DNA of 64,000 nucleotides from Haliotis cracherodii (Eukaryota), in contig NW_027266330.1 in the NCBI RefSeq assembly GCF_022045235.1, positions 15,624,001 to 15,688,000 on the forward strand, read 5' to 3'. The position numbers and the translations under genes were made by a program. The notes below the pieces were generated by a model. That model searched no databases, was not told the origin of the DNA, and saw only the letters and a program-made list of their open reading frames with translations. This document shows, piece after piece, positions 29,014 through 40,405 of the stretch; positions within the stretch are counted from its first letter, which is position 1, and the number at the start of each line of letters is the position of its first letter.

Positions 29014-29548
29014 AGTAGTTGTGTACTGGGGTATGGAACACCTCAGGATTATGGAACCACTCAGGATTATGGAACCGGAAGTGACGTCACATCCTCTGTG
29101 ACGTCACTTCCGGTCACGTGACCTGCGCAGTGCATGATGGGACTCTGCGCGTGCGCCTCCAAGATGGCGTCGCTTCCGTTTCCGGTGGCGTGCGCCTCCA
29201 AGAGGGCGTGGCTTCCGTGTCCGGTGGCGTGCGCCTCCAAGAGGGGCGTCGCTTCCGTGTCCGGAGGCGCGCGCCTCCAAGAGGGGCGTCGCTTCCGTGT
29301 CCGGAGGCGCGCGCCTCCAAGAGGGTGGCGCTTCCGTGTCCGGTGGCGCGCGCCTCCAGGGGGTGGCGGTGGTGGAGGGAGGGAGGGAGGGAGGGAGGGT
29401 GGTGGTGGTGAAGGGAGGGAGGGAGGGAGGAAGGAAAGGAGGAGGAGACGGGTTCATGGTGTGGGTGGGTGGGTGGGTGGGAGGGTCGTCAAAGCAAAGG
29501 AGGAAAGTTGTCTTTCGGGAGAGATGGGTGGCCCTGAAAAGGGCCGTT
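29014..29548 (+). repeat. Left terminal inverted repeat (535 bp)
   Basis: Reverse complement of 40365-40915; by eye differs only in (GGAG)n copy number (6 vs 10). Confidence 0.95.
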
Positions 29549-29550
29549 GG
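29511..29550 (-). terminator. Histone-type mRNA 3' stem-loop plus downstream element (for the Zn-knuckle gene)
   Basis: Minus strand CCAAC-GGCCCTTTTCAGGGCC-ACCCA-TCTCTCCC-GAAAGA; stem-loop at 29530-29545, ~130 nt after the stop at 29679. Confidence 0.85.
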
Positions 29551-29678
29551 AAAACAAACTGGAAACTGGAAACTGGAAACGACAGGAAACGTCAGGAACA
29601 CTGGAACACTGGAACACTGGAAAAACTGCAAACGATGGGACACTGGTAAAAAACAGTGGGGTAGCATGGCCCCATGCG

Positions 29679-30281
29679 TTAGTCACTTTGTTCAGATGAT
29701 CTCTCTTCTTCACCCTCTACTTCCATCTCATCCTCGGACTGAAGGTGTCGTCGGCGCTTTGAAGCGTGCTTTCTTGAGAAGCTTCTGGCCCGTTTTCTTT
29801 TCTCTACAAGAGGTGTGATGTCCGCACGGAGTTGTGCGAGGCATTCTTTTAGGTCGAGGACATCGACGTGCACGTCTTCGATGAGATGAACCACTTGTGT
29901 CACGGGTGTCACGGGTGTCACGGGTGCCACGGGTGTCGACGTGGACGGTGTTGCTGACGTTTTCTTTCGACTGGGTTCTGGGCAATCTGCAGCGAAATGA
30001 CCCAGGGCTTGACAGTTGTAACAGTGGTCCAGGCGATGAGAAGTCTTCTTTCGACTGGGTTCTGGGCAATCTGCAGCGAAATGACCCATGGCTTCACAGT
30101 TGTAACAGGGACCCAGGTTCCGATTCTCCTGCTTCTCTTGACTGTTCATCTTCGGACAGACATAGTGACGGTGACCTTGAGTGCCACACTCGAGGCATGT
30201 CACTTCAGGGCAGTACAGGTAACTGTGACTGTCGGTCTGGCACTTCATACAACTGTATCGAGCTGGCATGATGGGTTTCAT
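29679..30281 (-). CDS. Four-CCHC zinc-knuckle protein with basic NLS-like and acidic tail (~200 aa)
   Basis: Four CX2CX4HX4C motifs (CMKC..H..C, CLEC..H..C, CYNC..H..C x2); start taken at the ATG 30281 (or 30269) downstream of TATAAAA 30333-30339. Confidence 0.85.
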   Translation of the reverse strand: MKPIMPARYSCMKCQTDSHSYLYCPEVTCLECGTQGHRHYVCPKMNSQEKQENRNLGPCYNCEAMGHFAADCPEPSRKKTSHRLDHCYNCQALGHFAADCPEPSRKKTSATPSTSTPVAPVTPVTPVTQVVHLIEDVHVDVLDLKECLAQLRADITPLVEKRKRARSFSRKHASKRRRHLQSEDEMEVEGEEERSSEQSD

Positions 30282-30330
30282 AGAATGCAGTGTGTGTGTG
30301 TGTGTGTGAGTGGCTTCGCTCTTGTTTTGT

Positions 30331-30600
30331 TTTTTTATAGGAGAGTCACTGACACCCACCCTCCTGATTGGTTCCCCAGGCCGCGCCCCCGATTGGTTCG
30401 TTTCGGGGCCTGGTCTGCACCTCGGTTTTCCAAAACGGACCGACCCCTGTGTTTCTTTTCCATAGGAAATGGATTTTACCATGGGAGAGAAAGCACAACC
30501 CCGGTTCGACCATTCAGAGTCCCGCATGACCCGAGCACGGTCTCTGATTGGTCGACAACCCAGGCTTCGGATTGGTCCAATTTCGATCCGGTTTTTTTTT
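30331..30600 (-). promoter_or_regulatory. Shared CCAAT/TATA promoter cassette, copy A
   Basis: Homologous to 33403-33618, 38015-38322 and 39705-40015; several CCAAT boxes, TATAAAA ~50 nt before the ATG. Confidence 0.8.
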
Positions 30601-30809
30601 TATCGGGGTGTGCATTTCGATCCTGTTTTGTTTTTCTTCATCCTACAGACCACAGAACACGACTATGAGTTTTTAAAAAAAATTTAATCCCCTCGCTCAC
30701 ATGAACCAACACCACAAAACAAAAAGTCACAGGATGAGGGGGCCGTCCCTGTGACTTTTGTGAACACTGGGGGTATGAACGTCTGTACACTTTGAAAAAA
30801 GAAACGTTG

Positions 30810-31322
30810 TCACTTGGGGTGAACAAGACACTCGACTCTTCTCTTCCGTGCTTCTTGGGACACCAAACGTCTGTATTTTTCGTTCACTTCTCCATCAGGA
30901 CAAAACACACACAAGTATTCGCAGGGCACTTTGGCGTGCTTCAGATGTTCTTTCCAGGGTTGGTCTGTGGCTTCCCATTGGCGGAGTGACACACCGCAGC
31001 AATAACAGGTCACACAGTCACCTTGTCCTGGATAGAAATAGCCAGCCATGGCCATGTCATACGGGGTCTGGGTCATCTGTTGAGGCCACGTTTTAAAAGA
31101 TCTCAGACGTTCTTGAAATGAATCATAGTGAGGATGAGAAGGATGACACAGGGTGTAAGAAGGAAAAGGTCCCTCCAGAATGTCACTGAGTCGCCATGTG
31201 TCGTCCCTAAAGAGGGAACGTTTTCTCGCTTCTTGTTCTCTCGCCTTTTCAGACACCCACTCGGAATCGGTGACGACATCTCGGGAGGATGACATGGCAT
31301 TCATAGAACGTCTTTGCTCCAT
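30810..31322 (-). CDS. Single-BIR inhibitor-of-apoptosis-like protein 1 (170 aa)
   Basis: BIR signature RLRSF..WP...MAMAGYFY.GQGDCVTCYCC...WEATDQPWKEH...C; CATAAAA upstream near 31370. Confidence 0.9.
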   Translation of the reverse strand: MEQRRSMNAMSSSRDVVTDSEWVSEKAREQEARKRSLFRDDTWRLSDILEGPFPSYTLCHPSHPHYDSFQERLRSFKTWPQQMTQTPYDMAMAGYFYPGQGDCVTCYCCGVSLRQWEATDQPWKEHLKHAKVPCEYLCVFCPDGEVNEKYRRLVSQEARKRRVECLVHPK

Positions 31323-38796: not shown

Positions 38797-39107
38797 GAGG
38801 ACGACGTTTCCCGTGTCCTGCGTTCCCGTTCAAGTTCCCGTTCCAGTTCCCCGTTCAAGTTCCCGTTCCAGTTCCCGTTCAAGTTCCCGTTTGTCTACAG
38901 TTGTTGTTGTGGATGGTTCAATCTGTTTCCGCTTCCTGTTTCCAACAAACTTTTCTTTTTTTTTTGGACCCACAAGTGGTGTCACGGTGGTCACCCCGAT
39001 GACATACCCAGATGGCAGCAAGTACCCCTTCGACGATCCTTGTCTTGTCATAAGCTTGGACATGATCATTCTTCTTGGACAGCAGCAGAAAAGTTTTCTT
39101 CTTTCCC

Positions 39108-39150
39108 AAAACGGCCCTTTTCAGGGCCACCCATCTCACCCAAAAGACAA
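39108..39150 (+). terminator. Histone-type mRNA 3' stem-loop plus downstream element (for IAP2)
   Basis: AAAAC-GGCCCTTTTCAGGGCC(39113-39128)-ACCCA-TCTCACCC-AAAAGACAA; AATAAA further downstream at 39238. Confidence 0.85.
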
Positions 39151-39704
39151 CTTTCTACCTTTGCTTTGCCAAACAATGACAATCCAAAACAAAGAACCCA
39201 CACCCTCCCCTAGGCCTCTTGGAGGCACACGTCTAAAAATAAAATAAATAGATATAAATATAAATAGATCAATAGAGACACGTGGTACACTACGTGTGCA
39301 TGGAGACACGAGTCAAACATCACGTGTGCATGAAAACACGTGTCACAGTACGTCTGTCGACTTACACGGGTGTCAACACCTCGGTATCCTTAAATAATCA
39401 TAATAATAATAATTTGAAGACACACACACACACAGGACACCACGTGTACATGACGTTCACATCGCGACACTACGTTTTGCCTGACCACACGCTATTCTAT
39501 ACATCAACGTCAACGTCTGTTTGAAGACATACACACATACCCACACACACACATGCACACATGACATTCCGATTGGCATGGGAGTGACACACACGTACAT
39601 CACGTAGGCATTCCCACGTTCATGTCTACCGATGAAGGTCCACCTTCCTTTAGCATTCAGACGACCGTCTACCTCAAAAAAAAATACCAAGGCTACCCAA
39701 GAAG

Positions 39705-40015
39705 AAAAAAACCGGATCGAAATGGGACCAATCCGAAGCCTGGGTTGTCGACCAATCAGAAGCGGTGCTCGGACCAGGTGGGGCTCTGATTGGCCGAACC
39801 GGGGTTGTGCTTTCTCTCCCATGGTAAAATCCATTTCCTATGGAAAAGAAACACAGGGGTCGGTCCGTTTTGGAAAACCGAGGTGCTGACCAGGCCCCGG
39901 AACGAACCAATCGGAGCTGCGGTCTGGCGAACCAACCAGGAGGGTGGGTGTCAGTACCTCTCCTATAAAACAACAGTGGATTCGAGTGGGTCAGTGTCAC
40001 TTGTAAAATTGATTC
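39705..40015 (+). promoter_or_regulatory. Shared CCAAT/TATA promoter cassette, copy D
   Basis: CCAAT boxes near 39728, 39752, 39789 (reverse) and 39907; TATAAAA 39964-39970; leader shared with copy C. Confidence 0.8.
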
Positions 40016-40018
40016 ATC

Positions 40019-40357
40019 ATGATGAGCAGCAGCAACAGCAACAGCAACAACTACCACATGAAAGAAAACTGGGATTTAGAAATCGCCACAGTGAAACAAC
40101 CTTTGCCCGGGTGGAAAGAAGCATCACCACCACCACCACCATGGTCTCCAGCATGGCAATGCGACAGATGCCAAGGGGGCCTGCCTGTGTACGCCCTTGG
40201 CACAAGGGCACGGGATGGGACTTTCGAATGTGTGTACTGTAAGACCATCCTCAAGGACACCTACGTGCGTCGGTTAACGCACACCAGTAGGTGTCCTGTC
40301 AGACGTCAAATGAAAGTCCACCCGTGCCTTTGCACCATGGCGTGCACATGCATGTAA
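40019..40357 (+). CDS. Small Cys-rich Zn-binding protein (112 aa), CxxC-x19-CxxC, polyproline, C-terminal CTCM
   Basis: ORF fills exactly the space between promoter copy D and the histone stem-loop 10 nt after its stop. Confidence 0.75.
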   Translation: MMSSSNSNSNNYHMKENWDLEIATVKQPLPGWKEASPPPPPWSPAWQCDRCQGGLPVYALGTRARDGTFECVYCKTILKDTYVRRLTHTSRCPVRRQMKVHPCLCTMACTCM

Positions 40358-40362
40358 ATATC

Positions 40363-40405
40363 AAAACGGCCCTTTTCAGGGCCACCCATCTCTCCCGAAA
40401 GACAA
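40363..40405 (+). terminator. Histone-type mRNA 3' stem-loop plus downstream element (inner edge of the right TIR)
   Basis: AAAAC-GGCCCTTTTCAGGGCC(40368-40383)-ACCCA-TCTCTCCC-GAAAGACAA. Confidence 0.88.

Follow-up and report, generated by a model that had tools for sequence, protein, structure and literature searches.

Histone-type 3′-end signals behind non-histone genes in a Polinton-type element of the abalone Haliotis cracherodii

According to PMC4604434, no cellular mRNAs other than those of histones are known to lack poly(A), and that study found no non-histone transcript expressed in HeLa cells whose stem-loop is a target of SLBP. A stem-loop survey (bioRxiv 10.64898/2026.10.14.759114) covered, as its available text has it, only 300 bp behind histone stop codons, so that non-histone genes with a stem-loop would be missed by it; the same text gives the G-C at the second stem pair and the third loop U as conserved for SLBP binding. 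The nearest link between U7 and mobile DNA is the repression of HERV1/LTR12 by U7 through motifs like the histone downstream element (HDE), as summarised in an abstract (bioRxiv 10.1101/2023.08.25.554787). Searches of open full-text papers, with most subscription journals outside their coverage, turned up no account of a histone stem-loop on genes of Polintons or viruses or on any other gene that does not encode a histone. A window of 64,000 nt from Haliotis cracherodii (contig NW_027266330.1, 15,624,001–15,688,000, forward strand; coordinates without a prefix refer to this window) contains a mobile element, described here as Polinton-type, in which three non-histone genes end in histone-type 3′ signals. 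These signals are real and host-matched, their origin is traceable, and they have an independent parallel in the same genome.

The insertion spans 29014–40915 (11,902 bp) and codes for a protein-primed polymerase of 1422 aa, two BIR proteins, a zinc-knuckle protein, a small Cys-rich protein and one spliced gene (Table 1). An earlier note on this DNA had placed three copies of a histone-type motif in it, and they lie exactly where it had put them. Each copy consists of the stem-loop GGCCCT-TTTC-AGGGCC, the pentamer ACCCA, a spacer of 8 nt and a downstream element (G/A)AAAGACAACTT; the second-pair G-C and the third loop U are present. All three copies exceed the gathering score of the Rfam Histone3 model (RF00032, 34 bits), with E between 4.5e-7 and 1.2e-6, and are the sole Rfam matches above a gathering score within the element. 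As the note had described, they stand in sense orientation behind open reading frames (ORFs) without apparent intron, those for the zinc knuckle, BIR2 and the small Cys protein; the distances from the stop codon are 133, 316 and 10 nt, respectively. The homology of the terminal inverted repeats (TIRs), too, breaks off 3 nt ahead of the stem, as noted, which makes two of the signals the innermost part of the TIRs, and both face outward. In the whole assembly of 1.18 Gb the exact 21-mer occurs 319 times and its reversed control not once, which excludes chance as the cause of the recurrence of the stem-loop.

In the host, the 3′ end of the H1 gene reads GGCCCT-TTTC-AGGGCC ATCCA, 8 nt, AAAAGAAAACTT, and that of the four core histone genes GGTCCT-TTTC-AGGACC ACCAA, 7 nt, AAAAGA-NNN-C(T/C)T. 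The element stem is identical to the H1 stem, and the downstream element follows the pentamer after 8 nt, the spacing of H1, against 7 nt in the core histones. The downstream sequence of the element is (A/G)AAAGA-CAA-CTT. The first 30 of these 319 sites comprise 21 distinct, related haplotypes, chosen on the 21-mer, so that only their downstream positions are unbiased. All 21 keep AAAGA, in every case preceded by A or G, and the next three bases vary as they do in host histones. The flanks 40–120 nt downstream are 53–100% alike to the best window site, and diverged subfamilies with 68–85% flanking identity still hold the stem, the spacing and AAAGA. When the stem is left free in the pattern, 319 sites are found, and the exact stem-loop is present in 84 of the 100 listed. 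Comparison with the host histone genes, a check proposed in the earlier note, thus gives agreement in sequence, spacing and pattern of variation. The host H1 gene lies in a 3012-bp tandem repeat with 5S rRNA, separate from the 4252-bp core histone repeat (L053, G000:C23:50.93–51.15 Mb; L058, C37).

The origin of the signal can be followed to a diverged element end at C2:15.54 Mb (L060). There, a CCAAT promoter is followed by H3-derived DNA, then by the same stem-loop with its downstream element, and by a C-rich tract resembling a TIR. Its H3 segment is 79–85% identical to host H3 (E 3.5e-11, score 71 against a background maximum of 24) and spans the junction of 5′ untranslated region (UTR) and ATG as well as a duplicated tail segment. 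Two 5′ UTRs in the window, those belonging to BIR2 and the small Cys gene, agree with that of host H3 at 18 of 21 positions, a score that none of 152 background segments reaches, and the paired CCAAT boxes have the spacing of 24 seen in host H3, with an 11-mer in common. Likeness of the promoter to host H1, H4 and H2A/H2B is not above background, save for one marginal antisense match. The window element does not encode a histone: its segments score at most 25 against host H3 coding DNA, for a background maximum of 24. Judged by the H3-derived DNA before the same signal in L060 and by the window 5′ UTR matches, the simplest history is that the cassette derives from a captured host H3 gene, with promoter and 3′ end reused for other cargo. 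The element stem matches H1, not the host H3 examined; this might be accounted for by compensation at pair 3 or by descent from a different H3 copy. The broken element end itself (L060:5400–6400, G000:C2:15.542–15.543 Mb) contains repeats derived from the tail of host H3, with glutamine in place of lysine at several codons (ARQS, APRQ). With them, an element related to that of the window possibly carries a mimic of the histone tail; a homolog search with the H3-tail-like ORF found none.

On this basis the window signals probably, though by no means certainly, direct cleavage by SLBP and the small nuclear ribonucleoprotein (snRNP) of U7, yielding non-polyadenylated mRNAs and stopping read-through into the termini. 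An ancestor of the abalone Polinton-type family would have captured a replication-dependent H3 gene of the host. It would have retained what served the expression of this gene, namely the paired CCAAT boxes and 5′ UTR in front and the stem-loop with its downstream element behind, and put cargo of its own in place of the coding part. The zinc-knuckle, BIR2 and small Cys genes would be transcribed outward from copies of the captured promoter. Host SLBP would then bind the stem-loop, the host U7 snRNP would pair with the downstream element, and the RNA would be cut after ACCCA to give short, non-polyadenylated mRNAs. As two of the signals lie at the inner edge of the TIRs and point outward, this cut would also stop transcription short of the element termini. 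We infer the cleavage, the lack of poly(A), a timing to S phase or the oocyte and a benefit to the element; BIR2 may make both kinds of mRNA end, because an AATAAA follows its stem-loop.

In the host genome the SLBP RNA-binding domain is found. An Rfam U7 search of the genome yields two sub-threshold matches, neither pairing with the host downstream elements. A pattern that joins the host downstream element to an Sm-site motif finds two places (control 0), and a candidate U7 lies at one of them, G000:C9:24310950 (L169:151–214), with a host-complementary 5′ end, an Sm-like site and a 3′ hairpin of −9.5 kcal/mol. Over 12 bases, this candidate pairs with 10 in the window elements, 10–12 in host histones and 9–12 in other copies; a test of pairing with the host U7 was among the checks proposed in the earlier note. 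The evidence for the candidate that is free of the search consists of the adjacent Sm-like site, three unconstrained bases, the hairpin, and two A/G-toggling element positions opposite U. A possible shortened paralog of the candidate, under the Rfam cut-off, lies at C28:321637 on the minus strand (L170).

A number of observations weigh against cleavage by SLBP and U7. The candidate U7 scores 17.8 bits with the Rfam U7 model, under the cut-off of 34, and 9 of its 12 positions pair largely by construction, because it was found via the host-downstream-element pattern. The window elements are among those that pair with it most weakly, at −5.4 to −5.8 kcal/mol, much as host H2B does, and 16% of element background segments reach −5 kcal/mol. 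The RNA evidence consists of contigs of 4 of 24 runs, patchy over all parts of the element and of a depth unable to rank genes, so that the lower depth over the stem-loop genes carries no weight; the contigs show no molecule ends, so no RNA 3′ end is observed. In run X2, contigs of a variant copy extend about 45 nt beyond the core of the downstream element, which may reflect read-through, host intron RNA or DNA. The earlier note had taken the one spliced gene, with AATAAA and no stem-loop, as an internal control. That gene does have this structure, and its GT-AG intron (about 32004–32369) is joined in contigs of three of the four runs, but the intronless BIR1 (ATTAAA at +122) and polymerase genes also lack a stem-loop of their own, and BIR2 has AATAAA at +442 (about 39238), behind its stem-loop. 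AATAAA behind the stem-loop is also seen in host H1 and H2B, and the polymerase gene has no AATAAA or ATTAAA within 1.3 kb. The stop-to-stem distances of the element lie outside the host histone range of 27–43 nt. The 21 haplotypes are non-independent, and 16 of the first 100 of 319 sites have stem or loop changes, mostly single and several of them pair-breaking, so many genomic copies are decaying. Among foreign relatives (80 of 476 metagenome polymerase loci; 473,542 bases, 14 loci of at least 10 kb, hosts unknown, many without ends) the signal with its downstream element is found in 0 of 80, and in 0 of 27 distant viral loci. The reading given in the earlier note is in part supported, by the Rfam scores, the identity with host histones, the candidate U7 pairing and the retention in subfamilies, and is weakened by the failure of the intron control and by the absence from foreign relatives.

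The other searches of relatives agree with a narrow distribution. The 80 foreign loci contain one relaxed hairpin, against 0.6 in shuffles; the 11 foreign loci scanned with Rfam have no match, the pattern of stem-loop plus AAAGA has none in viral contigs, and single-protein scans of viral contigs give no match. In the same genome, the surroundings of two of three diverged Polinton polymerases (C4:10.27 Mb, C4:2.14 Mb; the third is on C10) were covered, and the relaxed pattern finds no stem-loop up to 100 kb from either. Absent from 80/80 foreign polymerase loci and from these two Polintons, the signal is a lineage-specific invention. Conservation in related elements, which the earlier note had made a test of its proposal, holds for diverged subfamilies of this genome but not for the foreign loci read or for these two Polintons.

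Within the genome, older copies have a related ATPase beside the polymerase, and one copy of 2.3 kb, which has an AGTAGT end, has it beside BIR1. At eight places an open integrase frame of 409–472 codons lies 2.3–2.6 kb behind the family ATPase, and no polymerase match occurs within 100 kb of these places (150 listed of 239 candidates). In 5/5 ATPase-integrase copies within the contigs listed, a stem-loop is found at a distance of about 1.0 kb from the ATPase match and on the strand opposite to it. The relative positions of the ATPase, integrase and polymerase matches suggest that the family is split into polymerase-bearing and integrase-bearing partners. ATPase-integrase copies with a stem-loop and a 2.6-kb gap include G000:C3:3.674–3.680, C5:38.615–38.621 and C4:43.101–43.107 Mb and five more. 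At three sites (G000:C3:7892569, C3:38265435, C5:39338270) the stem shows one and the same variant, in which pair 4 is mismatched, and two of the three sit 3.3–3.5 kb behind a family ATPase match. The locus at C1:41.91–41.93 Mb was considered as an autonomous member and rejected, because its integrase-ATPase block has inserted into a family copy: the block has different termini and is flanked by a separate 6-bp duplication. This nested element (L055:1957–6897, G000:C1:41.919–41.924 Mb) is 4.9 kb long, with TGATGA ends, an rve-chromo integrase and an ATPase; its long inverted repeats include the start of the integrase, of which several near-identical copies exist genome-wide.

The histone-type signal extends beyond the element to an unrelated gene family. 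Four matches to the relaxed pattern cluster at C2:42.77 Mb, each 30–90 nt behind a non-histone ORF of 92–98 aa (L171–L174, G000:C2:42769150–42781720). The protein is confidently predicted to form a two-helix hairpin (predicted local distance difference test, pLDDT, 94.6), with no histone fold in the model. The family has no Pfam family above the cut-off, no solved relative and no viral fold match at E 0.001; of its 573 relatives at 50% clustering, ten were looked up and one is named, from Lineus longissimus. It is absent from the window element and from the polymerase loci. Tandem arrays of these genes lie at C4:37.2–37.6 Mb (1.62-kb unit) and C13:10.8 Mb (2.68-kb unit). One unit per array was read (L175, C4:37399580–37399880; L176, C13:10851230–10851600), and in each the stem-loop, whose pair 1 is A-U, is followed by a downstream element of the host type; the Rfam scores are 28.2 and 20.6 bits, under the gathering score. 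The array stem-loop pattern occurs 232 times in the genome (control 0), the 100 occurrences listed all lying within the C4 array. All six members read carry the signal, one of them above the gathering score. Compensatory changes occur at pairs 1 and 4 of the stems, and the second G-C pair and third loop U are never altered. This pattern of change makes the family what appears to be the best sign in the genome of selection on non-histone stem-loops, and no proof for the window genes. The chances seem to us about even that abalone, and perhaps other marine invertebrates, have a class of non-histone SLBP/U7 mRNAs, formed by Polinton-type cargo and helical-hairpin genes, missed by poly(A) sequencing and co-regulated with replication or early embryogenesis. 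This wider reading takes together the Polinton family split between polymerase and integrase and the histone-like tandem arrays of helical-hairpin genes, of up to about 200 copies.

Other explanations of the window signals are less probable. The signal may be a passive relic, a leftover of the H3 gene copied along with the promoter-terminator module, kept alike by TIR homogenisation and youth and now functionless. We hold this unlikely: the family is young, H3 DNA was captured in L060, stem-breaking changes occur among the genomic copies and relatives lack the signal, but in subfamilies with 68–85% flanking identity the stem, the spacing and AAAGA persist and the variable positions are those that also vary in host histones, the H3 coding part has decayed or been replaced whereas the signal has not, and compensatory changes are seen in the unrelated helical-hairpin family. 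A little less likely again is a role as terminator or insulator only, in which the U7-directed cut mainly blocks transcription into the TIRs, the translated messages being mostly polyadenylated; the gain would be the avoidance of double-stranded RNA or of read-out into host DNA, and the cut mRNAs would not be stabilised or regulated in the histone manner. The outward-facing position of two of the three signals innermost in the TIRs fits such a role, as do the stem-loops in the five ATPase-integrase copies and the deleted copies (L054, L027) that hold the signal beside the end whatever gene precedes it. It does not account for the internal BIR2 copy, 1.2 kb away from a TIR, for the coupling of the signal with an H3-like promoter and 5′ UTR, or for the helical-hairpin genes, which carry it close behind their stops with no terminus seen. 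Very improbable is a role in DNA, with the hairpin acting in single-stranded DNA during protein-primed replication or marking the TIR boundary for recombination and its likeness to histone signals reflecting origin only: TIR homology does stop 3 nt before the stem, and rearranged copies often join near the signal (the contig joint 38850 to 39111 in two runs; L013, L014), but a DNA hairpin needs neither a strand-specific purine-rich element at a fixed distance that pairs with a U7-like RNA nor a sense orientation behind stop codons. Processing by SLBP and U7 remains the explanation we favour.

The features of the element are collected in Table 1. A CCAAT/TATA module of about 280 nt is repeated ahead of four transcription units. 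The polymerase matches PF03175 (E 6.6e-35) and has 2244 relatives, those at 97–100% identity being Haliotis cracherodii proteins. At least 25 polymerase copies match over all 1422 residues at 95–100% identity (33 of 900 candidates scored), which marks the family as young. There is no integrase among the element ORFs, and no packaging ATPase, protease or capsid is recognised in the seven ORFs scanned; the capsid model PF21738 has no match genome-wide, and it matched no control either. With integrase, ATPase, protease and capsids missing from this copy, the element is filed as a putative non-autonomous Polinton-type derivative. A homolog search with the small Cys protein found none, and atlas searches gave merely zinc-knuckle look-alikes below 0.9 and unnamed clusters.

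Table 1. Coordinates of the element and its features in the window
Feature	Position	Strand	Remarks
Target site duplication, left	29008..29013		6 bp, GTAGTA
Left TIR	29014..29548		535 nt, starts AGTAGT; contains downstream element, stem-loop and 3 nt before stem
Histone downstream element, zinc-knuckle gene	29505..29516	-	GAAAGACAACTT
Histone-type stem-loop 1	29525..29550	-	stem 29530-29545; CCAAC before, ACCCA after; Rfam 36.4 bits
Zinc-knuckle (zf-CCHC) ORF	29679..30281	-	200 aa from ATG behind promoter module
Promoter module copy, zinc-knuckle gene	30328..30607	-	CCAAT/TATA
BIR1 (IAP repeat) ORF	30810..31322	-	170 aa; no intron; ATTAAA at +122; lacks its own stem-loop
Spliced gene	31880..33170	-	no Pfam family; AATAAA/ATTAAA downstream, no stem-loop; 3′ limit approximate
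Promoter module copy, spliced gene	33403..33646	-	
Protein-primed family B DNA polymerase	33671..37939	-	1422 aa, no stem-loop
Promoter module between divergent polymerase and BIR2 genes	38015..38285		
5′ UTR segment, BIR2	38296..38316	+	21 nt, 18/21 match to host H3 5′ UTR
BIR2 (IAP repeat) ORF	38338..38796	+	152 aa
Histone-type stem-loop 2	39108..39133	+	stem 39113-39128; internal copy; Rfam 36.8 bits
Histone downstream element, BIR2	39142..39153	+	AAAAGACAACTT
Promoter module copy, small Cys gene	39696..39975	+	
5′ UTR segment, small Cys gene	39987..40007	+	21 nt, 18/21 match to host H3 5′ UTR
Small Cys-rich ORF	40019..40357	+	112 aa, no Pfam family
Histone-type stem-loop 3	40363..40388	+	stem 40368-40383; 10 nt after stop; Rfam 35.6 bits
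Right TIR	40365..40915		551 nt, ends ACTACT
Histone downstream element, small Cys gene	40397..40408	+	GAAAGACAACTT
Target site duplication, right	40916..40921		6 bp, GTAGTA

Outside the element, the window holds other repeats. At 53433–57618, an ORF of 865 aa for a P-element-like transposase (Pfam TNP-like domains) faces an ORF of 366 aa of no family, and a broken Tc1/mariner-type transposase lies at 15082–15891. Dispersed copies of a tRNA-like short interspersed element (SINE) occur at 12109–12272, 17870–18033, 25767–25930, 44324–44487, 52746–52909 and 60325–60488. Tandem arrays with units of 86/89, 68, 70 and 50 bases lie at 49135–50937, 60496–63213 and 43021–43770. The long near-perfect hairpins at 20914–21066 and 22933–23067 are probably miniature inverted-repeat elements, with Rfam microRNA matches far under the cut-off.

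In conclusion, if RNA tests confirm them as natural non-histone substrates, these genes would break the rule of histone-only mRNA ends. They would be the first case, within the literature searched, of a mobile element using SLBP/U7 processing, and a self-replicating element could in this way set the timing of its accessory genes, and of its anti-apoptotic ones, by S phase or by the egg. With Polintons (Mavericks), as defined in the accessible part of bioRxiv 10.1101/2023.08.22.554363, the element shares the protein-primed polymerase, TIRs within 100–1500 bp and a target duplication of 6 bp, inside the 5–8 bp expected of such elements, and related packaging ATPase and rve integrase genes exist elsewhere in the genome. 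It differs in that the window copy, 11.9 kb long, is without integrase, ATPase, protease and capsid, that ATPase and integrase occur together in separate copies without a nearby polymerase match, and that the 80 foreign relatives examined are without histone-type 3′ ends. Its likeness to the 3′ ends of replication-dependent histone mRNAs covers the 6-bp stem, the 4-nt loop, the second-pair G-C, the third loop U, the A/C-rich flanks and the purine-rich downstream element at host spacing, as well as intronless genes and an H3-like CCAAT promoter and 5′ UTR. Unlike histone genes, the element genes encode zinc-knuckle, BIR and Cys-rich proteins, none of them a histone, their 3′ UTRs measure 10–316 nt, and two of the signals lie inside transposon TIRs. 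With the HERV1/LTR12 system, to the extent of its abstract, the abalone element has in common U7 small nuclear RNA, motifs like the downstream element, CCAAT boxes and a mobile setting. There, U7 lowers transcription, and the abstract mentions neither stem-loop nor 3′ cleavage, whereas in abalone the full signal stands after protein-coding genes.

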